Source: Desulfatiglandales bacterium (lineage in GTDB: Bacteria; Desulfobacterota; DSM-4660; Desulfatiglandales; Desulfatiglandaceae). From it: a DNA stretch of 64,000 nt. The stretch lies in assembly GCA_963662465.1 (NCBI GenBank), contig OY759599.1, forward strand, positions 352,001-416,000. Reading direction: 5' to 3'. A program made the translations under genes and the position numbers. Position 1 is the first letter of the stretch, and each line of letters starts with the position of its first letter. The notes beneath the pieces were generated by a model. It had not been told where the DNA came from and made no database searches. It worked only from the letters and a program-made list of their open reading frames with translations. Below are positions 23,677-59,741 of this stretch, piece after piece.

Positions 23677-23952
23677 ATGAGAGCGATGAAATACAAGGGG
23701 TATTCGGCGCGGATCGAATACAGCGATGAAGATGAATGTTTTGTTGGGCGTGTTGCCGGTATTCGTGATATCATCACTTTCCACAGTGAGCGTGTTGATG
23801 AAATTCGCGGTGAGTTCAAGGAAGCCATAGACTTTTATCTTGCCACCTGTACTCAAAGAGGAGAGGCCCCCAATAAACCCTATTCCGGGAAAATGTTCTT
23901 AAGAGTTTCGCCTGAAATACATGCCGCTGTTGCTACGGCTGCCGAAAAATAG
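23677..23952 (+). CDS. hicB: HicB-family antitoxin, orphan and probably C-truncated
   Basis: MKYKGYSARIEYS..FVGRV.GI.DIITF...KPYSGK..LRVSPEIH. Confidence 0.8.
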   Translation: MRAMKYKGYSARIEYSDEDECFVGRVAGIRDIITFHSERVDEIRGEFKEAIDFYLATCTQRGEAPNKPYSGKMFLRVSPEIHAAVATAAEK

Positions 23953-24203
23953 GACCCAAATCTCTGAAAGAGTCTTGACCAGCCTGTTTTGACGCCGCTC
24001 TCCAACATTTCTTTAAAAAGGGCTTCAGCTCTTTCGGCTCGTAGGTGCTGGTCGCCAGTCTTTCACGGGCAGACTCATTTCTTTCATCAATCTTATACAT
24101 TTGGCATGTAATCTGCTATAACTCAAAAATATCCTTCCACACTATACTATAAATACCCGGTATAAAACCGGGGGGGCTAGATGCGCTCCTGGGTCAGCGG
24201 CGC

Positions 24204-24972: not shown

Positions 24973-25104
24973 AATGCCTGCCGGAGATTGTGGGAGAGGG
25001 GCGAAAAATGGAAACTGACAAGACAACGGCAGGTTCATTGACGCTTCTGAATGTGAAAATTATGCCGCGATGACTTTTTAATTTGAGCAAGGAGGGAGTA
25101 TGCC

Positions 25105-26865: not shown

Positions 26866-27349
26866 ACTTGTTTGTTATGAGAGTTGCCTTCTTCATGATC
26901 TATCCGAAACGATCTAAACCCCGTGATCAGTTACGAATTTAACATAACCGAAGTGTGAAATCAGCTCAAGAAGTTATTTGCTGAAATTCCGATATAAGCA
27001 TGAGCCGAGGATTTGTTGACGGGAAAAAAAGCGTGCATCCCAATGTTAGCAACGTTCCCGCCAACGCCCATGCGAAAACGCTGCTACTTTATGGAGGGGT
27101 TTGCGCTGTGCTTAAGTCTCTGGTATCCTGGAGGGATTTGGCAGTGTCAAAAAAACATTACCCCAAAAAAAAGATGGGTGGGCATCCTGAAATCAAGCAC
27201 TTAGCTAGATCGAGTCGGAATTTTCCATTTTTTCACCCCAAGCGAAAGAACTTGTCGGAATACCTTGATTTTAATACAAAATATTGTACAATGCCTTCAT
27301 CAGATAACAGGATAGAGTGTTTCTTTAAATATTTGATGGAGGCCGAAAC

Positions 27350-28831: not shown

Positions 28832-28936
28832 TCCAATTTATTTAAAATAGTTATAAATAAATGATTTAATTTAAAAGCATAGGAATTTCCATTTTTGATT
28901 TGGCATATCAAATAGTTGTTGCAGTGATGGCATTAA

Positions 28937-41810: not shown

Positions 41811-44167
41811 ATGACGGTATCCTCCCCTAAGGTATAGTGGATGGCGACAGCAGTTGTTGTCACCCACTGCCACAGAAAAAGCACTGTGGTTAACCCCACA
41901 CACGGAGAGATTGTCCATGAAAAAACGATTTTCATCCCATGAATTGTTTGAATTGAGAAACGCGATTCCTGTCAGGCGGCTGATCAGAGACGAGTTGCAA
42001 ATCCCTTCAAAAATCAGTGAAGGCGTTTTTCGTTTTCTTTGCCCCGTCTGCAATGAGTTCCAGACGGCGACGCATCCAGTCACAAACCTGGCCCGGTGCT
42101 TCAACGCTAATCAAAACTGAACCAAGTTTGCTAATGGAAATTGAACCATTGGCTGTCACCGCCGGTGAGTACGGCCCTCAGGTATAGCGGACGATGAGGG
42201 ATCCATAAGTGGCGGCAAAGGAGTCGTTGATGTAGATTTACTTTTCAATAAATTTTTATAAAATCTATTTTCTTTGGATTTGGTTTTCTTCTTCCAAGAC
42301 AGAGGCTTGGTTAAGTGGAAATGCGATTTACTTTGTAGAATGGATGGTGAAGGCCCGAAGTAGCCGCTTCGGGCCTTCTTTTTTGACCACCGGATAGAGC
42401 CGGAAGCCACACACACGCCAATTTTATATAAGTGTGTTTCCGGCCAATTGCAAGGCCGGAATGATGGGAGATGTCCTTTTAAGAGTGGTTCAATGCCGAT
42501 GTTGTGGTTGCTTTTTTCACGTCTGTCGGTCGTGTTGGCGTGGCCAGGCCTATTGTGGGGAACGATGTCGCAGGATACGCCAAAGACAGCTGCACCGGAA
42601 AGCTCAGGGGAAATACCGCAATTCGAAAAAAGGGAAAGAGCGCCGTCGTTTGTACGAAAAAACAAAAAAATCCAAAAAAAATGGACTGAACCCTGGTGAT
42701 GATAGTTCAACACCTCAAAAAGACTGTGATATTGAACCCAAAAAGCGGTCGGGGAACCGACCCAGCTGTCTTTTTTGCGGGTCGATCGGGGTTGTTGTGG
42801 ACCATTTTCCTCGCCGTGCTTATGCAGGGAGGGTTTTTTCAGATGTAACAGGCTTTGAGAAAACCCCATATCCATGACAGGAGAAAAAAATGATCAAAAA
42901 AAGAGTCCTTTTTCCCGAAAGAGTGCGTGTCATCAATGGAAGCTTCGGCTTTCTGGAGCATCGTTTTTTGAGAAACGGCTTTTGGGAGAGCCTGAATCAT
43001 CATGAGCTGCTGCTCTACATTTTTCTGGTGTTGGTATCTGACAAAAACGGGCTCTCTTATTATGGTTACGACAGAATCTGCCGGATTTTAAAGGTGCATT
43101 TGGATCAATATATCGATGCCCGCGATGGCTTGTTGGACAAGGATCTGATTGGGTTTGATGGCCGTCTGTTTCAGGTTCTTTCGCTTCCCAGACGTCCTGT
43201 GATTGTGAAACAGGTAAAGGAGATCCGGCAAGGAAATTGGGTCAGTCTTGGAGAAACCATAGAGGAAATCTTTCGGGAGACTGGGTATGGAATCCATCCG
43301 AACCGTTGATATTCATTTGCTGGAGTTGCGTTACGCTCATTGCCGGATAATGAATCACCAGGCTTTAAAGCGATTGAGGGATTCCATCGAAACTTACGGG
43401 CAGATCGTTCCGGCCCTGGCTATTGAAGAAAAAGACAAACTGATTCTGATTGATGGCTACCTGCGTGTTCGAGCGCTTTGTGCTTGTGGAAAGGACCGGA
43501 TATGTGTCCAATTCTCAAAAGAAAACGAACAAAATGCCATGTTTTCGCTTTTAACCAAGGCCAATGAACGGCAATGGGAAGTCATTGAGCAGTCTGTTTT
43601 ACTTCAGGAATTACATCGGCGTTTTGGGTGCAGCCTCTCCCATATTGCAACCCGAATAGGGCGCGACAAGAGTTTTGTAAAACGGCGGCTGGACCTGGTT
43701 GAAGCCCTGCCGGAAAATATTTTGAGAACCGTGATTGCAGGCTCACTTTCAACCTGGGCTGCCAGCCGTGTCATGGCGCCGTTGGCGCGCGCCAACGGTG
43801 AAGACGCACAAAAACTGTTGGCCCACCTGGAAAAAGAACCTCTATCCACAAGGGAACTGGCCCGTTTCTACGCACATTACCAGAAAAGCAACCGGTCTGT
43901 TCGAGACCACATGCTGGAAAATCCATCCCTTTTCATAAAAGTTCTCGAACAAAGAACCCAGTCTAAACAAGCCAAAGAAGTTCATGATGGACCGGAAGGC
44001 AAATGGTTCAAGGATATTGAAATGGCATATGCGGTTCTCAAACGTCTGGTGAAAACCGTTTCGCATGTCCATTACCCAAAAAGCGATCAGTTGAAGAAAC
44101 AAACGCTCAAAACCTGGGTGAAAAAGATAGAAAAACAAGCACTGGAACTCAAGAAAGCGACCCAATT

Positions 44168-45550
44168 ATGATCCGACAATCCAAAAAAGATGCCATTGTG
44201 GAATTGAAAAAAACCGGCATGAGTTTGCGCGACATCGCCAAAACCCTGAAGGCCGGTCGCAATACCGTCACGAAGGTTTTAGATGATCATGACGAAGAGG
44301 CGGTACCCCAAAGGAACTCCCGGTATGAAGAACATGTCCCGTTGATCCGCGAGCTTTTCAAGGAATGTAAAGGAAATGCCGTGCGAGTAGCCGAGGAACT
44401 GGAAAGCCGCCAACAGATCAAAATCCCTTATCAGAGTCTGACCTGGATTATGAGAAAGTACGAGATCCGGGAACGTAAAAAAAGACGGGCGGGCCAATAC
44501 CATTTTAAACCCGGTCAGGAGATGCAGCATGATACGTCACCCCATCTGGTTGTCATTAATGGGAAAAAAATGTCGACCCAGTGCGCGTCCCTGACCCTGG
44601 CCTTTTGCCGAAGGATTTTTATTCAGTATTACCCCTGTTTTACCCGGTTTGAGTGCAAGGTTTTCCTAAAAAAAGCATTCGAGTTTATGGACGGGGTGTG
44701 TTCCCGGTGCATGGTTGACAACACCAATGTTATTGTGGCCGGCGGCACCGGGCCTGATGCATTGATTGCGCCTGAAATGAAATACTTCGGCGATATGTAT
44801 GGAACCCGGTTTGAGGCCCATGCTGTAGGAGACGCCAATCGAAGTGCCCGTGTGGAAAGGCCTTTTCATTTTGTGGAAAACAATTTTCTTCCCGGTAGAA
44901 CATTTGTTAGCTGGCAGGATTTGAACCGGCAGGCAATCGACTGGTGCCGGAATACAAGCGATAAAAAGTTTAAACGGGCTTTAGGGATGACGCCGGATGA
45001 GGCCTATGTCATTGAAAAGCCATATCTCATTGATTTACCGGCATACCAGCCGCCAGTCTATGTGGCAGAACACAGGGTAGCCGATGTTCAGGGATATGTG
45101 CACTTGGACACCAACCGCTATTCAGTCCCTGAAGCGCTGATTGGGAACTCCCTGGAAGTACAGAAACATTGGCTCAAGGTCATCGTTTACGACAAAAACA
45201 CAAAAGTGGCGGAACATGACCGCATACTGGATAAACGCAACACCCGAACAACCCTGCCCGGTCACCATGTTCCCATTCGAAGAAAAAAAGATCCCCGAAT
45301 CCCTTCAAAAGAAGAACAGCTGTTGACGGGAGAGGATGCCATCCTGGATGAGTATGTGGCTGAACTGAAGAAAAGAAGTCACGGTCGCGGTGTGGTCAAG
45401 TTACGTCGGTTGCTTCATCTGAAACGCACTTATCCCGGGGAACCTTTTTTGAAAGCCATAACACAGGCGCTTAAATATGGACTTTTTGATTTGTCGCGTC
45501 TGGAAAACATTATTCTCGATTATATCGCGGGAGACTTTTTTGATCTATGA
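44168..45550 (+). CDS. istA: IS21-family transposase
   Basis: Same protein as 10285-11667. Confidence 0.95.
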   Translation: MIRQSKKDAIVELKKTGMSLRDIAKTLKAGRNTVTKVLDDHDEEAVPQRNSRYEEHVPLIRELFKECKGNAVRVAEELESRQQIKIPYQSLTWIMRKYEIRERKKRRAGQYHFKPGQEMQHDTSPHLVVINGKKMSTQCASLTLAFCRRIFIQYYPCFTRFECKVFLKKAFEFMDGVCSRCMVDNTNVIVAGGTGPDALIAPEMKYFGDMYGTRFEAHAVGDANRSARVERPFHFVENNFLPGRTFVSWQDLNRQAIDWCRNTSDKKFKRALGMTPDEAYVIEKPYLIDLPAYQPPVYVAEHRVADVQGYVHLDTNRYSVPEALIGNSLEVQKHWLKVIVYDKNTKVAEHDRILDKRNTRTTLPGHHVPIRRKKDPRIPSKEEQLLTGEDAILDEYVAELKKRSHGRGVVKLRRLLHLKRTYPGEPFLKAITQALKYGLFDLSRLENIILDYIAGDFFDL

Positions 45551-46266
45551 AAAAGAAAATTGAACAGTTACTCATTGATTTGAAGTTTAAAGGCATGCTG
45601 AAGGCTCTCGAAGAACAGTTGGCTTCGGCTGAAAAGAACGGTTTTTCCATTCACGAGGTCATCTACAATCTCCTGGCTGAGGAATTACGTTTCCGGCAGG
45701 AGCGCAGCATGATCTATCGGGTCCAGATTGCAAAGCTTCCATGGGAATGGACCCTCAACTCCTTTCCGTTTGATCTTCAGCCGGGAATACAGAAGAGCCG
45801 GATCATGACGTTGTCCGGCCTTGACTTTATCAGCCGAAGAGAAAACATCGTGTTCCATGGAAAAACCGGCGTCGGCAAAACGGGATTGGCCGTGGGGATC
45901 CTTCGTCAAGCCATTATTGCCGGGTACCGGGGGCGTTTTTATAATGTTCAGGATTTGCTGGATCAGCTCTATGCGTCTTTGGCAGATCGGTCCACCCCGA
46001 AACTCCTCAATGCCCTTTGCAGATATGACCTGCTTCTGCTCGATGAACTGGGATACCTGACCCTCAAAAAAGAGCAGATGAACGCCTTTTTTAAACTCAT
46101 GAAAGATCGCTATGAAGCCGGTCGGTCCACAATTATTACGACCAATCTTCAACCTGAACAATGGTATTCGCTGCTTGAACCAAAGGACATGGTCGATGCC
46201 TTGCTGGATCGTCTCAACCATCGCTGCATCAACATTCATATTGATGGTCCTTCCCTCAGAAAATGA
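45547..46266 (+). CDS. istB: IS21 helper ATPase
   Basis: Same protein as 9569-10288. Confidence 0.95.
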   Translation: MKKKIEQLLIDLKFKGMLKALEEQLASAEKNGFSIHEVIYNLLAEELRFRQERSMIYRVQIAKLPWEWTLNSFPFDLQPGIQKSRIMTLSGLDFISRRENIVFHGKTGVGKTGLAVGILRQAIIAGYRGRFYNVQDLLDQLYASLADRSTPKLLNALCRYDLLLLDELGYLTLKKEQMNAFFKLMKDRYEAGRSTIITTNLQPEQWYSLLEPKDMVDALLDRLNHRCINIHIDGPSLRK

Positions 46267-47019: not shown

Positions 47020-47694
47020 ATGCATCAGGAACGATTAAACTACCTTGAAACGATTATTGCGGGCAAGCAACGGAATTTTTATGAACTGGGAAAGGCCCTC
47101 AATGAGATAAAACAGACTCGTTTATATCGGCTGGCCCTGTATGACAATTTTGGCGCCTACGTCAAAGCCCGCTGGGATATGGGCAGATCCCAGGCCTATC
47201 GGGTTATCAATGCCTATCAGGTCGTTAACAATCTGTCCCCAATTGGGGGCAGACTTCCTGTTAATGAGTCACAGGTTCGCCCCCTGGCCAAGTTAACTCC
47301 CCTTGAACAGCGGGCTGCCTGGAAACGCTTCCTGGCAACGGGCGAGGAACTGACGGCATTGAATATCAAAACCTTTGTCTGTTCAGACGACCGTTCTCAT
47401 AAAAACAATTTTGTCAATTTGACGGATCTTATCTCCGATGCGTACATGGATGCGGTGTCAACCATGATAGAGCAGATTCGCATTGCTCAGCATGACCGCT
47501 GGCAGAAGACCTCTCGCCAGGCAGCTCTCCTGTGGAATCAGGTCATAAGTACCCGAGCAAATGTTTTTCAACATCTTTTTGATGTAATCCGCAATATACA
47601 AAGGGTAAACACCATCTTAAAATACCCTAAAATATATGCTTGGGTACTTACAGGAGAAAATTTTGGCAAAGGAGCCGGACAATGGATAACCTAA
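47020..47694 (+). CDS. Hypothetical transposon accessory protein
   Basis: FYELGKALNEIK..RLYR..F..Y...W...AYR..PVNESQVRPL pattern; operonic with neighbours. Confidence 0.65.
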   Translation: MHQERLNYLETIIAGKQRNFYELGKALNEIKQTRLYRLALYDNFGAYVKARWDMGRSQAYRVINAYQVVNNLSPIGGRLPVNESQVRPLAKLTPLEQRAAWKRFLATGEELTALNIKTFVCSDDRSHKNNFVNLTDLISDAYMDAVSTMIEQIRIAQHDRWQKTSRQAALLWNQVISTRANVFQHLFDVIRNIQRVNTILKYPKIYAWVLTGENFGKGAGQWIT

Positions 47695-49205
47695 CATTGG
47701 ATGACCGTTTCCATTTGCTGCTCTACAAAAAACTCATGAACAAGCAGGGAGCTGCCCTGCGGCGGGCAAAAAAGTATTACAAAGATCAGTATCGGAAAAC
47801 CGGCATCATCCCGGGGCCGCTATTGCTTGCAGAGAAAGGCATTATGGAGGGCAGGCGATGCAGTGGCAGGCCTCGGTCGCTGGACGATGAGACCCGCAAG
47901 CGTTTTATTGCCATGGTCAAGGCATCCTGCGACCCATCAAACCCGGCGTTTATTTTTATCACCAGAAAGGCCAGAATCATAAAGAATTACCATCATTGGC
48001 TTCAAGCTGAGTTGAACCGACCCGTCTCTATTGCCGCCCTCCGGCGCTCAGTGAAGCGAGACAATCTAAAACCGTATCTTACTAGACCGGATTTTGATGA
48101 TGATGTGCCCACCAACCATTGTTTTGACCCGGCGCCGGTGTTTGATCTGATCCAGATGGATGGTTGCAAGTTCCATTATTTGAAAATCAGAGATGACAAT
48201 GGATACTGGCAACAACCCCAGGTGATTGAATTGTTTGATACGGGGTCCCGCTATATGTTTGTCCTCGATGTGTTCTTCTCTGAAAGCAGTTTAAATGCGG
48301 TGGAGCTGTTCACGCAGTTTTTGTTGAGTACGCCATTCCCCCAGAAAACCTTTCGTATCCGACCGGATAACGCCAAAGGATTTTTGAACCTCAAGCGGGC
48401 CTTTAACGCCGTGAACCTTGCCCATTCAGTTCCCAAAGGGTTTTATATGGACGCCGATTTCGCTCGAATCCATGCCCCTAAAGATAAAGCACACCTGGAA
48501 TCATCTCATCGAAGCCTGCATCATTTTGAGATCCGGATTATCAAGGCATTCGAAGACCGGATTGTCAAAACTGTCCCTGGTTATATTTTCACATGTGGGA
48601 AAAGGGAACAGATCACAGTAACCCTCCTTGATATCAGCCGCTATGAATTAAAGGCCAGTTCACTGATACAGGACTATTGTCATGAACACAACGCAACAAA
48701 ACATTATTTCAGCGAAAATGGAAAAATCTCAACCTGGGTTCCGGAACAGAAATTAGCGCATGTTTTCCAGACAGAGGAAAATACCCTGACTTTTGCACCC
48801 CAACAGGTAAAACAGTATATGAAGTATGGTCTGCGCAAAACCCCGGCAACGGTATCGACAAAAAAAACAATCCGATGTGATAACCGGATTTACCATGTAA
48901 CCGTTGGTGCGGACGCATTCAGTAATCACAAAAGCACCCCTGTAAAGATATCCCGCTATCATGACAAGCTGTTCATTTTCGAGCCCAAGGATAACGGAAT
49001 TCTTCTGGGGGAGGCCATGCCCATGACCCCACCGGAACACCCTGTAAAATCGCCTGTTATAGACATTGAAAAAGGGGAACTCGAACAGATCATTTCCTTT
49101 TTGGAACATTATGATATGACCGTTGATCGCCCTGCATTGATCGAGACATATAATAAGGGACTGTCATTGGAGAGAAAGGCTATCCAATTGGTTCTGGGGA
49201 AATAG
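47682..49205 (+). CDS. DDE integrase-core (Mu/IS21-like) transposase, C-terminus truncated
   Basis: IQMDG, DTGSR, RPDNAKGF, PKDKAHLE; the end runs into unrelated IS debris. Confidence 0.7.
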   Translation: MDNLTLDDRFHLLLYKKLMNKQGAALRRAKKYYKDQYRKTGIIPGPLLLAEKGIMEGRRCSGRPRSLDDETRKRFIAMVKASCDPSNPAFIFITRKARIIKNYHHWLQAELNRPVSIAALRRSVKRDNLKPYLTRPDFDDDVPTNHCFDPAPVFDLIQMDGCKFHYLKIRDDNGYWQQPQVIELFDTGSRYMFVLDVFFSESSLNAVELFTQFLLSTPFPQKTFRIRPDNAKGFLNLKRAFNAVNLAHSVPKGFYMDADFARIHAPKDKAHLESSHRSLHHFEIRIIKAFEDRIVKTVPGYIFTCGKREQITVTLLDISRYELKASSLIQDYCHEHNATKHYFSENGKISTWVPEQKLAHVFQTEENTLTFAPQQVKQYMKYGLRKTPATVSTKKTIRCDNRIYHVTVGADAFSNHKSTPVKISRYHDKLFIFEPKDNGILLGEAMPMTPPEHPVKSPVIDIEKGELEQIISFLEHYDMTVDRPALIETYNKGLSLERKAIQLVLGK

Positions 49206-49391
49206 AAAGCGCTCATAAATCAATACCGCAAAAACGATTGAAAATCCCCGGTGCGACTTGGCGCCCTTCTTCAATTGATCCTATGCTTGCATTGCGAGTG
49301 TTGAGAGCAGATGACTGGTGGGATGATTCCGGACTCAAAGGAATCAGAAGTTGTTGGCAGCCTAACTCTCCAACAGCCGTGATTTACACCC
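49172..49391 (+). pseudogene. 3' remnant of an ISKra4/ISLre2-type transposase
   Basis: GYPIGSGEIESAHK..QKRLKIPGATW. Confidence 0.7.
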
Positions 49392-49574
49392 AATCCGTTT
49401 ATTCCCGCCTTATTCTCACTCTCGCCCCTTCTGCAGCTTTAAACCCATTCTTTCAGAGGTTCACGATCTCAAGAATGCAATTGATATCATATGGGAAGTT
49501 TTCAAAACGGACAAGAGAGTCCGACGTTTGATTGTATGAAGAATGCTGTAACCAAAACAGGGGGGTGATTTATC

Positions 49575-49869
49575 ATGGATGGGCTGAATGTGAAGCGAAT
49601 TAATAAACAGGGATAAATTTCCATTGACAAGAAATACGCAGGCAAGAAGGTTTAAATCGACCAATATCCCGATGGTACCGTTGTTTTGACGCCCATTGAG
49701 TTTATCAGTGAATTTGAAATCAATCTTCTCAAGTTCCGATCATTTCAGGACCGCCTGAAGGCTTTCGACCGATGGGAAGCAGTTCATGATGCCTCAGAAG
49801 CCAAGCTTGCTGATCTGGAGAGACATTTTGAGGATTGACCTAATCTTTCCCGGTTTTCAAAAAGATTTC
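49575..49869 (+). pseudogene. Decayed two-gene toxin-antitoxin-like module cut at the IR
   Basis: AbrB-like VKRINKQG*ISIDKKYAGKKV*..DGTVVLTP with stops; the next ORF start is truncated at 49869. Confidence 0.4.
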
Positions 49870-50402
49870 GGTTCATCGCGGATTAACGTGAAATTTGGTT
49901 TGACTGGATTTTGGCCCGTGCTGTAGGTGCGAATTCAGTCGTACAGAGCAGATGCCCTTTGTGCGACTAAAGTTGCACCTACAATCGTTCCAAAAGTTAG
50001 GGCTTCACGGCAATCCGCGAAGAGGCAAGATGACCCATAGCGGTTTAACGTGAACCGTGGATTGAAACCCTTCGATGAATTTCACCATATTTTCATCAAA
50101 ATAAATGCTCCTACAAAAAAACCTATTGACTTTTTCATTTTTTCGGAATAGCGAATGATTGAATTGAGTCAGCGCTATGATTTTGCGATTAACGTGAAAC
50201 TTGTTTCTGATGATGGTTTCACGGGGCCTGTAGGTGCGGCTTCAGCCGCACAGCATTGCTTTTTTAGGTTGTTCTTTTTGCGAAGTGTTCCGATTGTGTT
50301 GTACTCCGATTGTAGGTGCGACTTTAGTCGCACATTTCATTACGTTTTGCAATGCTTTCAAAAGGTTTTGGGGTCGGGTGATTTAATGAGGAGGGAAGGG
50401 CG

Positions 50403-51479
50403 GTGAAAAAAGAGATGAATCGGTTTTTAACGATTTGGGCGATTGGTTTGGCCGTGGTTTGCCTGTCTTTTGGAGCCCATGGGCGTGCGGCGGAAAAAGA
50501 CTGTAATGTGTTCATCAGTTGCGGGAATCCCTACGACTGCTGCAACAATGGAACCCAGGAACAGGACGGCAACTGCACCTGGTGGGCGTGGAAGATGATG
50601 TATGACCGGTGGGGGTATCGGGCGCCCACCTGGCACAATGCCGGTCAAGTATGGTTGGATGGCGCGCAACAGGCTGGGTTGCCCACGGGTGATGGAAATT
50701 CTCCCAGAGTCGGGTCCGTTTTTGTCCAATCCGGGCATGTGGGGTGGGTTTTCAAGGTGGACGGGAATACCATCTACACCACTCAAATGAACTGCGGATA
50801 TCCGGACCAGTACACTAGCGAACAGAACGATTACAAAACCTATGACATTACTACGCAAACGTTCCTGGGTTTCATCTATCCGCCGGACGGCTCCGGGCCG
50901 GTGCCGGATACGGGTGTGACAAAATGTTATGACACGGCCGGAAACGTCATCATCTGTCCGGATTCCGGTGAGGACTATTACGGCCAGGACGGCAATTACA
51001 CCATCAACCCGCCGTCCTATACCAAGCTGGATTCGCAGGGTTATGTTCTATCGGTTGCCGCCACATCCTGGGCCATGGTTCTAGACAATGTCACCGGGCT
51101 GTACTGGGAGGCGAAACAGAACAAGGACGGTGCCTCACATTACGATAATCCCCATGATGCCGACAATACCTATAACTGGTACGACGCGCAGAATATCTTC
51201 ATCAAGGCCCTAAACGACGCCAATTTCGGCGGCCATTGCGACTGGCGTTTGCCCACCAACAAGGAGCTGGCTTTTCTGGTGGATTACAGCATCGCGTATC
51301 CGGGGCCGACCATCAACATGACCTATTTTGCGAATACGGTGTCGTCCTATTACTGGTCGTCTACTACCTATGCCAATACTCCGGACGACGCCTGGCTCGT
51401 CGATTTCTACGATGGCTACCGCCTCTGGTACTGTAAGTCCTACAGCGATTACGTTCGGGCGGTTCGCGGCGGACAGTGA
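50403..51479 (+). CDS. DGR target 1: signal peptide, CHAP domain and Lcl/DUF1566 C-type-lectin-fold domain
   Basis: GNCTWWA...GHVGWV (CHAP Cys/His); DNVTGLYWE, DWRLPTNKEL, YWSSTT, VRAVRGGQ. Confidence 0.9.
   Translation: MKKEMNRFLTIWAIGLAVVCLSFGAHGRAAEKDCNVFISCGNPYDCCNNGTQEQDGNCTWWAWKMMYDRWGYRAPTWHNAGQVWLDGAQQAGLPTGDGNSPRVGSVFVQSGHVGWVFKVDGNTIYTTQMNCGYPDQYTSEQNDYKTYDITTQTFLGFIYPPDGSGPVPDTGVTKCYDTAGNVIICPDSGEDYYGQDGNYTINPPSYTKLDSQGYVLSVAATSWAMVLDNVTGLYWEAKQNKDGASHYDNPHDADNTYNWYDAQNIFIKALNDANFGGHCDWRLPTNKELAFLVDYSIAYPGPTINMTYFANTVSSYYWSSTTYANTPDDAWLVDFYDGYRLWYCKSYSDYVRAVRGGQ
51338..51478 (+). repeat. DGR variable repeat VR1
   Basis: 141-nt ungapped match to TR; 22 mismatches, 21 opposite TR adenines. 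Confidence 0.97.
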
Positions 51480-51526
51480 TCGATTATTCGGTAATTTGAT
51501 GCTTTGTTCATTTGGAGCTGAAAATC

Positions 51527-51925
51527 TTGGCAAGGTATGAACATCTACCCCTATACAAAGCGGCCATGGACATGGGAGTCTATCTCGAAGGTATGGTCCA
51601 TAACTTCAGCCGGTATCACAAATATACCACCGGTCAGGAACTGCGTAGCCTGGCCCGCGAAATCATCAAGCTTATCATCTGGGCCAATTCGGTCCGGGAT
51701 AGGAGCGACATCCTGTCGGAACTGGTGATCCAGTGCGAAATGCTCAAGACCATGCTCTTTTTTGCCAAGGAAACCAAGGCGATTCAGAGCTTCAAGGCAT
51801 TTTAGCACGCCTCCGGTCTGGCGGTGTTGCTTTGCAGACAGAGCGAGGGCTGGCTTAAAAGCAGTCGAAAGGGCCCGAATCGCCCACCCCCGGATGGGAA
51901 AGGGGGGCCGGCGAGTGCGCCATGA
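51527..51925 (+). pseudogene. avd: Avd-like four-helix-bundle accessory gene with in-frame TAG at 51803-51805
   Basis: MARYEHLPLYK...FSRYHKYTTGQELR; past the stop the frame continues HASGLAVLLCRQSEGWLK to TGA at 51925. Confidence 0.85.
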
Positions 51926-52243
51926 ACACTGTGCGCCTCCCCCGCCTGGCGGTTCATGCAGGCATATTCATGCAGGGCGTGGAGGGATCCGCGCCCGGTG
52001 GAAGGAAATTCATTGCGGCCTGCACAGCTGTGGGTGCGACTGTAGGTGCGACTTCAGTCGCACAGCAACGTCGTGCGCCAATACCGGGTATGGCTTGTGC
52101 GAATAAATTCGCACCTACAGTGCAACCGTCCCGACGGCGGATGTTTTGACCCCGGGATGGGTTGTGCGGCTGAAGCCGCACCTACAGCACAGTGCCACAG
52201 CACAGCGCTATTGTGGGTTTCCTTCATCAAGTGGGGAGGTGAT

Positions 52244-52384
52244 GGTGTCGTCCAATTACTGGTCGTCTACTACCAATGCCAATAATCCGAACAACGCCTG
52301 GAACGTCAATTTCAACAATGGCAACGACAACTGGAACAATAAGTCCAACAACAATTACGTTCGGGCGGTTCGCGGCGGAAAGTG
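52244..52384 (+). ncRNA. DGR template repeat (TR)
   Basis: 17 AAY codons in the target frame; lies between avd and the RT core; matches VR1 and VR2. Confidence 0.97.
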
Positions 52385-54009
52385 TTCCCCTGCTGTCCTT
52401 CCGGTCAATTTATGATGCGTATCTGGATTGCCGAAGGAGAAAGCGCAATACCATCAACGCGCTCAGGTTTGAGGCCGATTTGTTGACCAACCTCTTTGAC
52501 CTGGCGCTGGACCTGCAAAAGGGACGGTATCAGCCCTCCCGCTCTGTCTGCTTTGTCACACGGTCCCCGAAGCTCCGCGAGGTATTCGCCGCGGACTTCA
52601 GGGACCGGATCGTTCATCATCTGGTGGTGCGGGAACTGGAGAAGATATGGGAACCGCGCTTTATTTATGATTCTTATGCGTCCAGAAAAGGGAAAGGCAT
52701 CCACTCGGCCGTGGACCGGCTTCAGGGATTCATGCGGAAGGTGACCCGCAACGGCAAGCGGGCCGGCTTTTTTCTGCAACTGGACATTCGGTCTTTCTTC
52801 ATGAGTATAGACAAACGCATTTTGTTTTCCCTGTTTGACCGGGACCGGAAAACATCGGATGTGCTGCGGTGGGTTTTGTCGGTACTCATTTTTCATGATC
52901 CCACGACGAATTATTGTTTCAAGGGAAACGGGAGATTGCTGGACGCCATTCCGCCCCATAAAACTCTTTTCAAGACCGGCCTGTACAAAGGGCTCCCTAT
53001 CGGAAATCTGACGAGCCAGTTTTTCGCCAACGTCTATCTCAATGAACTGGATCAGTTTGTCAAACATGAGCTGAAGTGCCGGTTCTATTTGAGGTATGTG
53101 GATGATTTTATCCTATTGGCGGAGAGTGAAGATCAACTGTTGAAATGGCGTCAGGCGCTGAGCGGGTTTCTGGAAGACCACCTGGCGCTACGTCTGAGAG
53201 GCGGTGACCGGGTGCGCCGGGTTTCTGACGGTGCGGATTTTCTGGGGTATGTGACCCGCCCCGGGTACCGTCTGGTGCGAAAACGCGTGGTGAACAATTT
53301 TAAATATGTGCTGGCGCGAACGCGGGACAAAATGGTGGTGGAGATGGCGGGTGACGCAGCGGCCGTCGGTGCGGCAGGACGTGCGGTTGCCGGTGCGACT
53401 GTAGGTGCGACTTCAGTCGCACAACCGGAAAAGAAAATCACCCGCGTCACCGGCGCCCCCGCAGGTGCGAATTCATTCGCACAGCCCACCAGGGTTGCGG
53501 TCCCGGGCATCCGCACACTCACGATCCGTCCCCGAATGGTCCTGCATTTGCGGCAGGTCCTGGCCTCTTACCTGGGCCATTTTCAGCATGCGGACAGCCG
53601 GTATCTGGTTGAGAGTATTTTCACAAAACACACCTGGCTCAGGCAGTTGTTTGTGTTTGACCGGGGTAAACTGAAGATGAAAGCCCTTCCCGTTCAAACC
53701 TTTCCATGCATGCGGGAGCAGGTGTGGTTTTTTAGAAGGCATTATCCCGGATTCATACTTTTGTTCCGGGTGGGCCGCTATGTGGAGCTTTACGGAAAAG
53801 ATGCTCGGATTTTGCGGGAATATGCCCATTTGAAGCTAGTGAAACAGCATCGGGGCCTGCGGGATTCGGTGGGGTTTCCGGTGAGCATGACCCGGGGCAT
53901 ACGCCGAAAGCTTTTAATGAGGGGTCACCGAACGGCGCTGGTGGCCCAGGGCGTCACCGGCGGGCGGGTGAGACGCCGGTATGTGGCAGAGCTGGCGTTT
54001 GCGACCTGA
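52276..54009 (+). CDS. DGR reverse transcriptase with in-frame REP insertion and C-terminal MutS-N-like extension (start uncertain, possibly near 52390)
   Basis: PKLREVFAADFRDRIVHH, GLPIGNLTSQFFANVYL, RYVDDF, GADFLGY; tail ILLFRVGRYVELYGKDA. Confidence 0.95.
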   Translation: MPIIRTTPGTSISTMATTTGTISPTTITFGRFAAESVPLLSFRSIYDAYLDCRRRKRNTINALRFEADLLTNLFDLALDLQKGRYQPSRSVCFVTRSPKLREVFAADFRDRIVHHLVVRELEKIWEPRFIYDSYASRKGKGIHSAVDRLQGFMRKVTRNGKRAGFFLQLDIRSFFMSIDKRILFSLFDRDRKTSDVLRWVLSVLIFHDPTTNYCFKGNGRLLDAIPPHKTLFKTGLYKGLPIGNLTSQFFANVYLNELDQFVKHELKCRFYLRYVDDFILLAESEDQLLKWRQALSGFLEDHLALRLRGGDRVRRVSDGADFLGYVTRPGYRLVRKRVVNNFKYVLARTRDKMVVEMAGDAAAVGAAGRAVAGATVGATSVAQPEKKITRVTGAPAGANSFAQPTRVAVPGIRTLTIRPRMVLHLRQVLASYLGHFQHADSRYLVESIFTKHTWLRQLFVFDRGKLKMKALPVQTFPCMREQVWFFRRHYPGFILLFRVGRYVELYGKDARILREYAHLKLVKQHRGLRDSVGFPVSMTRGIRRKLLMRGHRTALVAQGVTGGRVRRRYVAELAFAT

Positions 54010-54316
54010 TCGAGTATAGGTGCGGCTTGTAGGTGCGACTTCAGTCGCACAACAAATCCCTCGTTGTGCGACTAAAGTCGCACCTACAGTGGTGGTCTAG
54101 ATGGAGGTGATGGGAAAAATTGAAATGGGATTTACGGGTTGGGTTTTGATGACCAGTGGTCTCAAGAGATTGTGTTGTTGCGGGGTGGTATGGCGGATTG
54201 CTGTGCGACTGAAGTCGCACCTACAGCAGGACAAGGCTGGAGGGAATGAGGATGGAGTGTTGTGCGACTAAAGTCGCACCTACAGTTAGGAGCGTCCAAA
54301 TGCGGGGGATGCATCG

Positions 54317-54796
54317 ATGAAGGGAAGGGGTGCTCCATTATATCCGCCAGGCTATGGGGCGTTGCGGGCAGGCCGGTGGAGCGAATCGGGGCGGTGTTAC
54401 ATGATTACCACGGTTACCGCCGACCGTGCGCCGGTTTTTCGCGATCTGTTTGCCGGTCGTTGCGTTGTTCGGGAGATGATGCGGTTGCACGGTGATGGAG
54501 TGGTGGCATCTCTGGCCTGGGTGATCATGCCTGATCACTTTCACTGGCTGGCGGTGCCGGCGAGTCCATGGAGCCTTTCAAAAGTCATTCAATTGCTGAA
54601 GGGGAGATCCGCGAGACGTGTGAATGAATATCTGGGTCGTACGGGCAGCCTCTGGCAGCCGGCGTTTTATGATTACGCGGTTCGGAAGGACGAAGATCTT
54701 CGCAAAATGGCCCGATATATCGTGGGTAATCCGATCAGAGCGGGTTTTGTGAAGCGGGTTGAGGAATACCCCCTGTGGGATGCGGTGTGGTTGTGA
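54317..54796 (+). CDS. rayT: REP-associated tyrosine transposase (RAYT)
   Basis: YMITTVT, WVIMPDHFHWL (HUH), WQPAFYD, RYIVGNPIRAG; flanked on both sides by REPs. Confidence 0.92.
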   Translation: MKGRGAPLYPPGYGALRAGRWSESGRCYMITTVTADRAPVFRDLFAGRCVVREMMRLHGDGVVASLAWVIMPDHFHWLAVPASPWSLSKVIQLLKGRSARRVNEYLGRTGSLWQPAFYDYAVRKDEDLRKMARYIVGNPIRAGFVKRVEEYPLWDAVWL

Positions 54797-55513
54797 TCGG
54801 TGTGTATGGCTCGATCCGATGTGTGGCCGGTTCACGATTGTAGGTGCGGCTTGTAGGTGCGACTTCAGTCGCACAACAAATCCTCACTGTGGGACTGAAG
54901 TCGCACTTACAGGAGGACAAGGCCGGAGGGAATGAGGATGGGGTGTTGTGCGACTAAATTTTCACCTACAGTCGTATTCCAAATGAAGGTGACGGGAAAG
55001 ATTGAAATGGGATTTACGGGTTGGGTTCTGATGGTCGGTGGTCTCAAGAGATCGTGTCGTTGCGGGGTGGTAAGGACGATTGTAGGTGCGGCTTCAGCCG
55101 CACATTTGGGCTGCGGATGATGGATGTACGGCGGGTGTTGTGCAACTAAATTTGCACCTACAGTGTTGTGCGACTAAAGTCGCACCTACAGTCGTATTCC
55201 AAATGAAGGTGACGGCAATGGGGGGTTGTGGGCAGGCGGATTATTGTGCGACTAAAGTCGCACCTACAGCACGGAAGCATCTCTTTTGTTGCGAAAAGCA
55301 TGGGCAAAGGATGTGACTATCAGAAGCACCGGTCCATGGCAAAGAGGGGTCGGAAGAGCGTCATTTCATTTTAGCGACGGGCATAAATATTTGGCGGCCG
55401 CATTGAAGGGCGCGGGGAAAATGGATCAGGAAGAGGCAGGCGTGATACGGATGCCTCTTTTGTCGGTACGGTTCCATTTACCCGTGTCTGTGCTGCCGTA
55501 GAAGGAGGAAGGC

Positions 55514-58500
55514 ATGAAAGCAATGCGATGGGCAACAGCCGTCATGGCCCTGTGGGTCGTAATCACGATCACGCAAACGGCGTACGCGGCCTTTGTGGAC
55601 AATGGCAACGGCACGGTGTCCGATACGCGAAGCGGCCTCATGTGGCAGCAGGATACGGCCAGGGATGCTGGGGGAAACTATGATACCATGACCTGGAAGG
55701 AGGCCTTGGCCCACTGTGCCAATCTGGAGCTGCCGCCAGGCGGCTATACCGACTGGCGCCTGCCCACCATCAAGGAGATTCGATCCCTGGTGGATTGCAG
55801 TCAGTATAGTCCCGCCATTAATCGCAATGCCTTTCCCGATACGGTGTCGTCCAATTACTGGTCGTCTACTACCTATGCCAGTAGTCCGAACTACGCCTGG
55901 AGCGTCTATTTCTACAGTGGCGGCGACTACTGGGGCAATAAGTCCTACTACGGTTGCGTTCGGGCGGTTCGCGGCGGACAGTCTGGGGCATTCGGTTCTT
56001 TGGATCATTTGGTCATTTCGGTGCCGGCGGGCGCCCAGTCGGTTGGGGATGATTTTACCATCACCGTCACCGCCGAGGATGCGGCAGGGCTGCAGGTGCT
56101 GGATTTTGCGGGTAGCGTGAACCTTTCGGCCGAGGGGAATACCGTTGACCCCACCGCAGTGACCCTCTCCGGCGGGCATGGGAGCGCGTCCATTCGCATC
56201 TTGAACGTCGGCAAAACCCGGCTCAACTGCGACGGTTATGGGGCCTACGGCAACAGCCGGTATTTTGACGTGGCCGGGGAGAATCCCTGCATCGGGTCCA
56301 TCGAGGGGAGCGTGGTGGACTGCCGGGGCACCCGCGTGAGCCAGGCCACGGTGCGGGCCCGTGACGTGGAAGGGGACGTGATGGCGAGCACCACCACGGA
56401 CGGTAACGGAAGGTTTACGCTGGCAGACTTGACCTGCGGGCCGTATGATATCGAGGTTGAAAAATCCGGCAAAACCGCCACCGGCATCTGGAAGACGGTG
56501 GGCGGACATTACTGCACCACGGCCTTCGGGATCGAGCTGCCTTTGAACTGCGGAACTGAACAAGCGGTGGTGGTATTGGTCCCCGGCATCATGGGGTCCA
56601 GCGAATCGTCATGGGGGGGGGTTCCCAGCTTGCCGGCCGGTGCACCGGCACGCGCTTCGGATTTGCACATTCATGCCGAGGGGACAACCGGTTTTAAAAA
56701 ACTCAAAGAAGAACTGGAAGCGGCAAATTTTACCGTGGTGGAGTGTCCCTGGGACTGGCGGCTCAATTGTGAGCGGGCCTACCGGGAATACCTGAAGGAC
56801 AAAATAGACGAAGCCCTGGCGGATTCAGGCGCCGACAAGGTGTATGTGGTGGCCCACAGCATGGGGGGGCTTATGGTACGGGCCTACATTCAGAACAAGG
56901 AGAATTATCGGAACGACATCGCCAAAGTGGCCTTTGTGGGCACCCCGCATCAGGGGTCCTGCAATCCCTATTACATCTGGGAGGGGGGCGATCCCCTGGC
57001 GGTCGACGATATGGTCGGTCCGGCACTGGACTTTTATACGCGGACCACCGAGAAATTGTGGGGGAATTACAAGAGAGGCTGGAACACTGAAAACCACGAT
57101 GAGATCCGTTCGTTTATCAGAAGCGACGTGCAGTCCCTGCTGCAACTGATGTATGCGGAAAAATTCCTGACGGATATGCGTTCTTACTGGGCCGTGGAAA
57201 CCCCCGGCAATACCAACGACTGGCTGGACGACTTAAACGAAGGCGATGGGAATTACAACAAGCCGTACGATGTCATGAGCAAGGACGGTTCAAGCGGCAA
57301 CAAGGTGGAGGCCCGGTGCTTTGTGGGAGATTCGGCTGCTTCCACCATTCGGTGGGTCAAGATGGCCCGCACGAGAGGCAGTTCCGGGGCTACCGATGAC
57401 CGGTATGAGGACGGTATTCCACGAAATGAACGGCCTCAGAAAGATAACGTTTTATGGGGAAGCGGCGACAATACGGTTCCCTATGACAGCGCCGTTTATC
57501 CTTACACGAAGGGCTGGGCCCAATTGTGCGCGAAAAAATCCCAAAAAAAACACAGTGAACTGGTGAAGGATTTTGCGACGGACATCGTGCTTTTTTTGGA
57601 CCCCGATGCAGTGGTTTCCTCAAATGCCGCCACAAGGGATGACCCGACTCCGCCCGAACTGTCGGTTTCCATCACCGGCGGGATGCGCGTCCAGATCATA
57701 GATCCCGAGAACCGCAAAACCGGCGCCGACCCGGCCACGGGCCTGCCGGTGCAAAATATCCCCGATTCTATGTGCGCCTTTGATGTGGGAGGCGGCGGCG
57801 CGGCGGTGCAAAGCCCCGCGGCCGGGGCCTACCGGATCACTTATTTTGGCCAGGCGGACCGGGATTTCCAGATCTCGCTAGACTACCAGGATGACACCCT
57901 GACGGAGACCTACAGCTTTCAGGGGTTTCGGCCGGCAGACGCACAGACCTTTACCGTGAGTCTCAACCCCGCAGCCTCTCCCCGTCTCACCATCACCCCG
58001 TCCTGCAAGGCTCCCACCAATCTGGAGGCCAACCCCTACACGTCCGGCGAAACCCCGAAAACCCGCCTTTCCTGGTCCGCAACGGACGAAGCCGGCCTTT
58101 CCGGCTACAATGTCTATGGGGTGGCCCAACTGTCTCCCTATTTCTCCAAAGTGGCCACCGTGGCATCGAATGTCACCACTTATGATACATCAGACACCTG
58201 GAGTTCCGATGCCGCCACCACTGTCATGACCTATGCGGTGACGGCGGTGAAAACCGACGGCACGGAAAGCTTTTTTTCCAATACGGCCCAGAACGATGAC
58301 CGGGACCATGACGGCGTGACCGACGCACGGGAAGCAACAGACGGCACCAACCCGGACAACCCGGATTCGGACGCGGATGGCCTGAATGACGGGAAAGAAT
58401 CGGCATACGGTACCAACCCCCTGGTGAAGGACACGGACGGGGATACCTGGAATGACGGCGATGAAGTATCCGCCGGCACCGATCTCCTGGATCCTTATTC

Positions 58501-58789
58501 CATACCCCGAAGCGTGGGGTATGTGGACCCGGCCGGTGGCTGCAACGGCAACACCCCGTGCTACACAACCATACAGGCGGCCGTGGAAGGCGCCAAAAAC
58601 GGGGGCGTTGTTGAGATTAAGCAGGGAACCTATAGCGAAGAAGTGACGCTCGGGGCTGACAAGCAGGTGATGCTTCAGGGGAATTGGAACGATTCATTTA
58701 ACACCCAGAGCGGCATAACGACGCTGACGCACGCACCCAAAGCGCCCCTGGGGCGATTGACGCTGCGGGATCTGCTGGTGAAACCGTGA
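55514..58789 (+). CDS. DGR target 2: signal peptide, N-terminal Lcl/DUF1566 domain, Ig-like domains, alpha/beta hydrolase (lipase/LCAT-like), FN3-like domain and Asp-rich Ca-binding repeats
   Basis: FVDNGNGTVSD..GLMWQQ, DWRLPTIKE, YWSSTT; VPGIMGS, AHSMGG, GTPHQGS, GDNTVP; DxDxDG repeats. Confidence 0.9.
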   Translation: MKAMRWATAVMALWVVITITQTAYAAFVDNGNGTVSDTRSGLMWQQDTARDAGGNYDTMTWKEALAHCANLELPPGGYTDWRLPTIKEIRSLVDCSQYSPAINRNAFPDTVSSNYWSSTTYASSPNYAWSVYFYSGGDYWGNKSYYGCVRAVRGGQSGAFGSLDHLVISVPAGAQSVGDDFTITVTAEDAAGLQVLDFAGSVNLSAEGNTVDPTAVTLSGGHGSASIRILNVGKTRLNCDGYGAYGNSRYFDVAGENPCIGSIEGSVVDCRGTRVSQATVRARDVEGDVMASTTTDGNGRFTLADLTCGPYDIEVEKSGKTATGIWKTVGGHYCTTAFGIELPLNCGTEQAVVVLVPGIMGSSESSWGGVPSLPAGAPARASDLHIHAEGTTGFKKLKEELEAANFTVVECPWDWRLNCERAYREYLKDKIDEALADSGADKVYVVAHSMGGLMVRAYIQNKENYRNDIAKVAFVGTPHQGSCNPYYIWEGGDPLAVDDMVGPALDFYTRTTEKLWGNYKRGWNTENHDEIRSFIRSDVQSLLQLMYAEKFLTDMRSYWAVETPGNTNDWLDDLNEGDGNYNKPYDVMSKDGSSGNKVEARCFVGDSAASTIRWVKMARTRGSSGATDDRYEDGIPRNERPQKDNVLWGSGDNTVPYDSAVYPYTKGWAQLCAKKSQKKHSELVKDFATDIVLFLDPDAVVSSNAATRDDPTPPELSVSITGGMRVQIIDPENRKTGADPATGLPVQNIPDSMCAFDVGGGGAAVQSPAAGAYRITYFGQADRDFQISLDYQDDTLTETYSFQGFRPADAQTFTVSLNPAASPRLTITPSCKAPTNLEANPYTSGETPKTRLSWSATDEAGLSGYNVYGVAQLSPYFSKVATVASNVTTYDTSDTWSSDAATTVMTYAVTAVKTDGTESFFSNTAQNDDRDHDGVTDAREATDGTNPDNPDSDADGLNDGKESAYGTNPLVKDTDGDTWNDGDEVSAGTDLLDPYSIPRSVGYVDPAGGCNGNTPCYTTIQAAVEGAKNGGVVEIKQGTYSEEVTLGADKQVMLQGNWNDSFNTQSGITTLTHAPKAPLGRLTLRDLLVKP
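55843..55982 (+). repeat. DGR variable repeat VR2 (codons 111-156 of 1091)
   Basis: 140-nt ungapped match to TR; 19 mismatches, all opposite TR adenines. Confidence 0.97.
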
Positions 58790-59111
58790 GGGGCACATGG
58801 AGACGGGAGCTGGTTGCGGATGTAGGTGCGTCTTCAGCCGCACAGCTTGTGCGACTAAAGTCGCACCTACAGCCCGGGCTGAAACATATTCAAAGCGCGG
58901 TTTCACGTTAATCCGCGATGAACCGTTTCATGGAGCGGGCGTATCGGGCAGCCTGACCCGGAGAAGCTTCAAAGGTTAATTGATCCACATACTCCTTTTT
59001 CACCTCCCCCATGAGCCAGGTCTTGTCGGTCTGCCTGGGGCTCAGATGGTGAAATGGTCTTGACTCCTCATGCGAACAGGACTCTGTTTATCCGCATGTT
59101 TCGGGTCCTGC

Positions 59112-59741
59112 TCAGAGGATGCTGCCAAGAGATTTCACCCATTTCTCGAAGTCCTTTTTGACATGGTTCCAGTCCACCGGCCTGATCATTTTCACTTCAG
59201 GTTCCCCGTCCGCATCCGCAAAATACACCAGGCTCCTGATCACATGCCCTATGTCCCGATTTTGATATTTCTCCATGTACAGCCGCAGACAATCATCAAG
59301 GGAACAACCATGGGTCATGAGATGGTGCAGATCAAAAAAATCCTTGCGGGAGCCGCGGGAGGCTATGGCTGACAATTTCATGCAGGCAATGTCCTCCATG
59401 GAGGCCATTCGAATTGCCGTATCAGGTATGGGTACCGTGTTTCGAAGCATGGGATAGTCATAGCCGATGAAGCTGTTTTGAACTCCTTCAATGGTCAGAT
59501 AAACCGTCTCAATACTGACGGATTCCACCACATAGTCCATTTGCAATGCCTTCATCAGGCGGAATAGACCCTCCGGTTCACCAAGCTTCCGGATAAACCA
59601 GTCAAAATCAATAGAGCGCCGGTGACCCAGTTGAAGTGCCAGGGCGGTACCGCCGGCAAGGTAATACGCTGTGCCGGCGAGAACCTGCGCCAGAGAAGCG
59701 AGGACCCGCTTTTGTGCATCGCTCAATATTTCAATGTGCAT
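59112..59741 (-). CDS. AbiEii/AbiGii-family nucleotidyltransferase toxin
   Basis: YLAGGTALALQLGHRRSIDFDW; MKLSAIASRG..KDFFDL. Confidence 0.9.
   Translation of the reverse strand: MHIEILSDAQKRVLASLAQVLAGTAYYLAGGTALALQLGHRRSIDFDWFIRKLGEPEGLFRLMKALQMDYVVESVSIETVYLTIEGVQNSFIGYDYPMLRNTVPIPDTAIRMASMEDIACMKLSAIASRGSRKDFFDLHHLMTHGCSLDDCLRLYMEKYQNRDIGHVIRSLVYFADADGEPEVKMIRPVDWNHVKKDFEKWVKSLGSIL

Follow-up and report, generated by a model that had tools for sequence, protein, structure and literature searches.

A 64-kb stretch of contig OY759599.1 from a Desulfatiglandales bacterium (hereafter the window, numbered from its first letter) carries a genuine two-target chromosomal diversity-generating retroelement (DGR) of the DUF1566/Lcl_C (CLec2-type) class. 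Its cassette lies entirely on the plus strand and runs from a first target gene through avd, a template repeat (TR) and a reverse transcriptase (RT) gene with a MutS domain I tail to a second target gene. Each target gene carries a variable repeat (VR). In the parts of the 2017 DGR survey used here (PMC5758913), DUF1566 is grouped with CLec2, and two-target cassettes account for 13% of the reference set. The main features of the cassette are as follows.

50403-51479, plus strand: target gene 1, 358 amino acids (aa); signal peptide, CHAP domain at aa 55-130, Lcl_C/DUF1566 domain at aa 225-355
51338-51478, plus strand: VR1, at the 3′ end of target 1; differs from TR at 22 sites, 21 being TR adenines
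51527-51925, plus strand: avd, with a TTG start at 51527, a bAvd profile match and a TAG inside
52244-52384, plus strand: TR, with 17 AAY codons and 44 A
52276-54009, plus strand: RT open reading frame (ORF), 577 aa from ATG 52276, with ATG 52318 also possible; RVT_1 at aa 100-301, MutS domain I at aa 479-560
55514-58789, plus strand: target gene 2, 1091 aa, with several Pfam domains
55843-55983, plus strand: VR2, preceded by 110 codons of target 2 and followed by 935; 19 adenine-site mismatches

A sequence-only reading of the window had already taken this locus for a DGR. Our analysis bears this out, as an RT, an Avd homologue, a TR beside the RT, two VRs and an initiation of mutagenic homing (IMH) segment are all present. 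The same layout recurs elsewhere: a scan of GTDB genomes yielded 80 related loci, mostly in metagenome-assembled genomes (MAGs) of Desulfobacterota and Nitrospirota, and 20 of the 80 have the order target1-avd-TR-RT-target2 with a VR ending in glutamine on both sides of TR-RT. The earlier reading did not include the avd TAG, the frame offset of the RT, the 8-nt-periodic repeat after each VR or the invasion of the cassette by palindromic repeats and their transposase gene, all of which are described below.

Adenine-specific differences between the repeats

A repeat search of the stretch returned three in-register copies (51327-51477, 52233-52383 and 55832-55982), and the core of TR, VR1 and VR2 is free of gaps in a MAFFT alignment. 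All comparisons were made over the TR interval 52244-52384, in which 44 of the 141 nucleotides (nt) are adenines. Recounting on the alignment gave the same figures for VR1 as the sequence-only reading, namely 22 differing sites with 21 at A, and the single non-adenine mismatch falls at G 52326. For VR2, that reading had reported 19 sites, all at A. The 19 adenine sites stand, but the alignment holds 20 mismatches, the last at G 52384, which is the point where homology stops. Within 52244-52383, non-A positions of TR are altered in 1 of 96 cases in VR1 and in 0 of 96 in VR2. The claimed DGR signature was tested on this realignment and holds, with a hypergeometric enrichment at adenines of p = 6.5e-12 for VR1 and p = 1.4e-10 for VR2.

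One adenine-site difference stands apart from the others. At 52380 an A-to-C change converts the GGK of TR to GGQ in both VRs; the same change is found in all 61 Q-ending VRs of the relatives, and the TRs of the relatives keep K or E at this site. Judged from these aligned repeats, the 52380 change is a fixed difference between the IMH and its TR counterpart (IMH*) and no mutagenesis event. Without it, the adenine events number 20 in VR1 and 18 in VR2. The positions changed in both VRs make up 12 of the 30 in their union, and the same base was gained at 5 of these 12. This is about the chance level of one in three, so the two VRs were diversified independently, as had been proposed. Likewise, the earlier estimate of about 10^20 variants agrees with our figure, the 17 AAY codons allowing 15^17 = 9.9e19 protein variants. 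A fourth copy of the repeat was not found in the 64-kb window, where tblastn gave three matches and the IMH pattern also gave three, with 0 expected.

The reverse transcriptase and its MutS-like tail

The RT ORF starts within TR, in a different frame. Its product matches RVT_1 (E 4.5e-16) and MutS_I (E 1.5e-11) in Pfam. Its best solved relative is chain 8ub7_A (E 3.6e-35), which we take to be bRT of Bordetella phage BPP-1, and group II intron and retron RTs follow at about 1e-10. In an alignment of 18 sequences the RT carries YVDD and IGNLTSQ and keeps all invariant RT columns; the SQ motif is a mark of DGR RTs. The tail matches residues 13-97 of Thermus MutS 1ewq (E 4e-4) and contains a G-x-aromatic-x-E motif; G500 and E504 of this motif are the same throughout, with F or Y at the intervening aromatic position in 18 of 18 sequences. 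The mismatch-binding motif of MutS is Phe-x-Glu.

MutS_I is present in 98 of the 120 best RT relatives from a protein search in which 8000 candidates were scored and 7704 RTs reached E <= 1e-3. The RT-MutS_I fusion is thus a large lineage that extends beyond the only three such RTs noted in the consulted parts of the 2017 survey (PMC5758913). A search of a phage collection gave 122 records whose matches are confined to the RT core, and 0 of them reach 80% coverage of the query, indicating that this collection has no phage counterpart of the MutS_I-fused RT. By analogy with MutS, the simplest reading of the tail is that it would serve as a mismatch-binding module on the heteroduplex of cDNA and VR. 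In Bacteroides, deletion of the host mutS increases VR mutagenesis 5- to 10-fold, according to the sections used of a preprint (bioRxiv 10.1101/2024.11.15.621889). Host MutS therefore limits mutagenesis in that setting, and a decoy or shield against it would be useful to a DGR.

Sequence elements flanking the repeats

The GC-rich 21-nt segment GTTCGGGCGGTTCGCGGCGGA is identical across TR, VR1 and VR2, and the window has three occurrences of a 28-nt GC-rich IMH segment, with no more than 1 mismatch. Past the 21-nt segment, VR1 and VR2 remain alike for about 35 nt, and TR does not share this similarity. The flanks of the repeats hold the following elements.

51479-51516, plus strand: 8-nt-periodic repeat after VR1, non-coding; ATTCG at 51486, ATTTG at 51494, CTTTG at 51502, ATTTG at 51510
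55984-56020, plus strand: 8-nt-periodic repeat after VR2, coding, translated SGAFGSLDHLVIS; pentamers at 55990, 55998 and 56007
52229-52240, plus strand: TR 5′-flank motif AAG-N-G-N4-GGT, conserved in relatives

Pentamers of the TTTGG type are absent after TR in the window. Across the lineage, at least two such pentamers lie within 40 nt of 49 of 61 VRs and of 1 of 33 TRs, and the frequency in random 40-mers is 2.2%. Their spacing is exactly 8 nt in 72 of 86 cases, and the autocorrelation at a lag of 8 nt is 0.57 in VR flanks and 0.25 in TR flanks. The repeat, in at least two copies, follows the stop codon at 35 of 43 terminal VRs and lies within the ORF at 14 of 18 internal VRs and is translated there as SGSFGNLVIS or a similar peptide. 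Because the periodicity persists in both non-coding and coding DNA, the constraint appears to act on the DNA, with the protein accommodating it. The loci at which we observed the periodic repeat are the window, L002-L034, L052, L063 and L072-L074. Among the more distant DGRs, L063, L073 and L074 share it, and L044, L057 and L059 have a classical GC hairpin.

A hairpin or cruciform was not found after either VR of the window, as the DNA there folds no better than shuffled sequences (z of +0.71 for VR1 and +0.34 for VR2). The prototype phage element depends on a 24-bp inverted repeat after its VR for efficient homing, as described in the portions used of PMC3240598, and GC-rich inverted repeats follow the VR in only 34% of DGRs according to those of PMC5758913. 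When the literature was searched by terms for direct or tandem repeats that follow the VRs of DGRs, no description of such an element was retrieved. We infer from its distribution that the periodic repeat may be the target-recognition element of this lineage, in place of the hairpin. If so, the repeat would be important to protein engineering in which such DGRs are directed to new targets.

Upstream of the template, the motif AAG-N-G-N4-GGT lies within 30 nt of 28 of 30 TRs and of 1 of 46 VRs, against a background of 0.8%, and the region that contains it is probably part of the DGR RNA. The motif was also considered as a Shine-Dalgarno site only, serving an RT start at TR, and this was rejected since it is equally conserved in a non-Shine-Dalgarno form in relatives in which the TR ORF ends at once. 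In many relatives a small hairpin precedes the motif and its stem seems to covary (GGCC/GGCC, GGTC/GACC, GGCA/TGCC); this hairpin is not evident in the window. A scan of the window against Rfam at the gathering thresholds gave 0 matches.

Target proteins and their relatives

Both targets are predicted to be secreted enzymes, one a CHAP peptidoglycan hydrolase and the other a lipase-like hydrolase. Target 1 matches CHAP (E 4.6e-9) and Lcl_C (E 1.9e-31) in Pfam, and its translation has an N-terminal hydrophobic leader and keeps the CHAP cysteine in GNCTWW and the histidine in GHVGW. VR1 forms the last 47 codons of its Lcl_C domain, with a TGA stop directly after GGQ. In target 2 a signal peptide is followed by the Lcl_C domain that holds VR2 (aa 33-153; Pfam E 4.2e-36), an immunoglobulin-like stretch, CarboxypepD_reg (262-321), an LCAT/PGAP1-like alpha/beta hydrolase (352-572) with the nucleophile motif AHSMGG, and TSP3 repeats (about 951-970). 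From this domain arrangement, the catalytic parts of both targets are predicted to be constant and the lectin-like module variable. The targets here are enzymes instead of adhesins or sensors. An AlphaFold2 model of residues 1-260 of target 2, built on a 19-row alignment, was too poor to assign a fold (pLDDT, the predicted local distance difference score, 56.8, and below 50 over 112-150), and PDB sequence searches with both targets gave 0 matches.

The placement of the VRs follows a pattern among the related loci. The upstream VR ends its gene. In the downstream gene the VR is found about 100-120 codons in, and either a stop or a long extension of up to 2122 codons comes after it. Full-length orthologues of target 2 occupy the same position beside the RT in L018 (Nitrospiraceae; 35% identity over 1048 aa) and in L004 (39% over 862 aa). 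These two loci belong to two other phyla-level groups, and both orthologues keep the AHS[MT]GG motif; a partial orthologue is present in L023. A hydrolase or toxin-type domain was found in 8 of 46 scanned target proteins of the relatives: LCAT-like in L004, L018 and L023, Lipase_2 or Lipase_3 in L015, L041 and L071, Peptidase_M23 in L031 and RHS repeats in L002. In L002 (9815-14440) the downstream target has 1541 aa, with an N-terminal variable Lcl_C domain followed by DUF6531 and RHS repeats.

Fusions of CHAP to Lcl_C are rare, the CHAP region being covered by 2 of 147 matches to the N-terminal part, one of which is the window's own protein. Among homologues of the hydrolase part, 14 of 34 carry Lcl_C and the others differ N-terminally, for example P0249 with PF13385/PF02210. 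The homologue P0260 joins M23, Lcl_C and lipase in one protein, which points to action on cell envelopes, either the cell's own or, as the bolder reading, those of neighbours. Target 2 also has a 1455-aa paralogue, P0247, outside the window on the same 8.16-Mb contig, with 54% identity over the hydrolase part and three static Lcl_C domains where target 2 has one variable domain. P0247 was rejected as a remote target of the DGR: its Lcl_C copies end in GGP or EGD and not in GGQ, as judged by eye, and it has glutamine at TR AAY positions, which NNY codons cannot reach.

Upstream of target 1 we observed a repeat of about 30 nt with a GCGGwTTAACGTGAA core, present two to three times (49874-49903, 50036-50065 and about 50170-50200), which is a possible regulatory site. 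Scans of 49200-59100 for promoters and terminators gave counts not above those of shuffled sequences (8 vs 6.2 +/- 2.6 and 13 vs 11.7 +/- 3.8, respectively).

Lesions in avd and at the TR/RT junction

An Avd homologue is present in the cassette but is not intact, which bears on present function and not on membership of the DGR class. The in-frame TAG at 51803-51805 is codon 93 from TTG 51527, so that 92 aa precede the stop and about 132 aa would result from read-through. As found, avd matches positions 13-82 of the 107-position bAvd profile with 33.3 bits; when read through with X at the stop, it matches 14-106 with 42.8 bits. The corresponding column holds Q in 15, R in 2 and K in 1 of 18 avd relatives, and conservation continues through the 39 codons past the TAG, which hardly differ from those of L023. 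Recoding of TAG was considered and ruled out, as TAG terminates 5 of the 34 long ORFs in the window and no tRNA, suppressor or other, was found there. In the sections used of the prototype work (PMC12875486), avd was required for the DGR to be reconstituted in E. coli.

The second lesion lies where TR passes into the RT gene.

52387-52390, plus strand: C4 run where TR meets the RT gene, with one base more in the alignment than L001, L008, L022 and L004

The TR-frame ORF stops at 52413-52415, and the RT frame is thus separate from the TR frame, whereas the TR frame continues in frame into the RT in 19 loci, among them the closest relatives. The closest related locus, the sister L023 (1-4896 of a MAG contig; RT segment identity 79%), looks decayed. 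It has lost VR1, about 570 nt are missing from inside its RT, which also has a frame break, and its TR has gained 1 nt; its avd is intact. This decay is possibly a product of artefacts in the assembly of the MAG contig.

The near-perfect identity of the VRs to TR at non-A sites indicates that the last retrohoming was recent. A clean adenine signature next to a broken avd also means that the signature by itself says nothing about present activity; here it is a record of past activity, and present activity is doubtful, with one assembled sequence as the basis. On the sequence as assembled, we lean slightly towards an element that is now inactive or close to it, unless the lesions are sequencing errors.

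Weighing the alternative explanations

Taken as a whole, the locus is best explained as a DGR with two enzyme targets that was formerly active and now carries lesions, to which we assign a probability of about 0.85. That the three repeats are instead ordinary paralogous DUF1566 segments, diverged by point mutation or gene conversion in the absence of any retroelement, has next to no chance of being correct. DUF1566 domains are often duplicated, and the three static copies in P0247 show as much in this same genome, but 40 of the 42 differences coincide with the adenines of one particular copy, which make up 31% of its positions, and this adenine bias refutes divergence of the ordinary kind. Moreover, that copy does not encode the domain and stands directly before an RT, in a layout that recurs in 20 other loci. 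We also find it very improbable that VR1 is the sole true target and VR2 a relic in an unrelated large gene that is no longer addressed. The distance of 3.6 kb between VR2 and TR, with an insertion of palindromic repeats and their transposase gene in between, would fit such a relic, as would the usually C-terminal position of VRs in the 2017 survey, as far as the consulted parts of PMC5758913 cover it. Against this, VR2 bears 19 adenine-only changes without any non-A change and has the same IMH and periodic 3′ element as VR1. In addition, a downstream target with its VR about 100-120 codons in is the rule for this lineage, as seen in 18 internal VRs and in the orthologues of L004, L018 and L023.

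If the TAG and the extra C were errors or were tolerated, with the truncated Avd sufficing and the RT starting at ATG 52318, the DGR would be fully functional now, and we give this a substantial minority share of the probability. Its appeal lies in the near-perfect identity of TR and VRs outside adenines, in the conservation of the codons beyond the TAG and of the invariant RT columns, in an RT frame that is open to the in-TR ATG, as in P0051 and P0066, and in two intact cis elements. It has to contend with a TAG that acts as a normal stop in the window, with a truncation that removes the last quarter of the bAvd profile, and with an extra C that is not shared by the four in-frame relatives in a lineage where 19 loci read from TR into the RT. 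The further decay of the sister locus, which lost VR1 and an internal part of its RT, also speaks against full function. Several observations weigh in turn against our preferred reading of a formerly active element with lesions. The RT frame is open back to both ATG 52318 and ATG 52276, and the in-TR ATG seems also to be the start in the more distant relatives P0051 and P0066, so that the frame change at the junction may be harmless. Errors of assembly could account for both the avd TAG and the C4 run, homopolymer length being especially error-prone. Given that retrohoming was recent, any inactivation must be very young, or else the lesions are such errors. Finally, conservation and analogy are the only grounds for assigning functions to the periodic repeat and the MutS domain.

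Proposed mechanism and likeness to known systems

A DGR that was formerly active at two enzyme genes would work as follows, with its steps taken from what is established for the family. The avd-TR-RT unit would be transcribed, and the RT together with Avd would copy the TR RNA into cDNA while misincorporating opposite template adenines; this cDNA pathway is drawn from the portions used of the prototype work (PMC12875486). The cDNA would then replace the homologous VR in the two genes. Homing would be directed by the 21-nt IMH, which is followed by the fixed base (C in the VRs, A in TR) and, after the VRs only, by the periodic repeat. The MutS_I tail might hold the mismatched cDNA:VR heteroduplex or shield it from host mismatch repair. 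In this scheme the element would vary what both enzymes bind and not what they catalyse.

More tentatively, the lineage as a whole may be an aiming system, in which a lectin-like module is re-randomized on a secreted peptidoglycan hydrolase (CHAP here, M23 in L031), on a lipase (here and in L004, L018 and L023) and on an RHS protein (L002), with recognition by the 8-nt repeat instead of a hairpin. We consider this generalization unlikely as it stands. If it were true, the bacterium could keep re-aiming lytic enzymes at the changing surfaces of neighbours or prey, and a repeat that is readable as protein would allow a VR to be placed near the start of a long enzyme gene.

Among described systems, as covered in the parts of the sources used here, the DGR of Legionella pneumophila (LdtA; PMC5758913) is similar in having a VR in a DUF1566-type domain, an Avd, a MutS domain I-like function, a chromosomal location and an exported target. 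It differs in that the MutS-like function is provided by a separate Msl gene, whereas here the domain is fused to the C-terminus of the RT. Compared with Legionella, the window also has two targets, one of its VRs lies in the N-terminal domain of a 1091-aa enzyme, and a GC-rich inverted repeat is missing. The BPP-1 element, with the order mtd-avd-TR-brt (PMC3240598, PMC12875486), shares the adenine-specific differences, Avd, a GC-rich IMH with IMH* in TR, and a homologous RT. In contrast to its one phage tail-fibre target and the hairpin/cruciform that it requires in the 24 bp past the VR, the window has two cellular enzyme targets and an 8-nt-periodic direct repeat; its RT is about 250 aa longer with the MutS_I tail, and its TR lies inside the RT ORF. 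The Bacteroides DGRs with Avd and Msl (bioRxiv 10.1101/2024.11.15.621889) are likewise chromosomal and have a MutS-like accessory function, but their targets are pilus tip adhesins and their Msl is separate, in contrast to the hydrolase targets and the fused MutS_I found here. The terms lipase, hydrolase and DUF1566 do not occur in the main text of the surveys PMC8144416 and PMC10907252, and lipase, peptidase, hydrolase, CHAP and Rhs do not occur in the text used of PMC5758913. The term peptidase is absent from PMC8144416 and occurs 13 times in PMC10907252, each in the text covered.

Mobile elements in and around the cassette

The cassette has been invaded by repetitive extragenic palindromic sequences (REPs) and the gene of a REP-associated tyrosine transposase (RAYT). 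A search for the 22-nt palindromes in both orientations gave 20 matches, all within 49923-58870 of the 64-kb window, with 0 expected.

52042-52063 (plus), 52097-52118 (minus), 52164-52185 (minus): three REPs between avd and TR, found as pattern matches
53390-53486, plus strand: two REP-derived stretches in the RT linker, translated in frame, found by repeat search; matches at 53401-53422 and 53461-53482
54018-55269, no strand assigned: REP cluster with the RAYT gene, 9 REP matches, between the RT and target 2
54317-54796, plus strand: RAYT gene, NCBIfam REP_Tyr_transpos at 138.2 bits with a cut-off of 80
58822-58870, no strand assigned: REP pair just past target 2, marking the outer limit of the REP cluster

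The gap between the RT and target 2 is 1505 nt here and has a median of 63 nt in 26 relatives. The sister locus L023 has the same REP family and has REPs at the same place between avd and TR, with its RAYT at a different position of the cassette. The length of the RT linker varies among relatives. With a RAYT-family Y1 transposase and flanking REP palindromes, this part of the locus belongs with known REP/RAYT systems; unlike them, it is a passenger in a DGR cassette and outside the DGR mechanism, and two of its REPs are translated in the RT linker.

The cassette has a G+C content of 56%, compared with 48% for the whole window, and lies in a region dense in mobile elements, among them a group II intron RT, insertion sequence (IS) units of the IS21-like, ISL3 and IS91 types and other transposases. 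In this transposon-rich stretch GC skew gave no clear replication direction, and Pfam searches on the neighbouring ORFs at 47020-49205 and on others gave no matches. The assigned neighbours are listed below.

4097-5296: group II intron RT/maturase (RVT_1, GIIM), with an overlapping ORF at 5148-5666 in another frame
9569-12548 (minus) and 43287-46266 (plus): two inverted IS21-like three-gene units (ParB helix-turn-helix protein, Mu-type transposase, IstB ATPase) that bracket about 31 kb
18259-30271: unrelated transposase genes (ISL3, Transposase_29, DDE_Tnp_1, IS91-type Y2) in a highly plastic region
59112-59741, minus strand: nucleotidyltransferase toxin gene of the AbiEii type, next to the cassette on its downstream side

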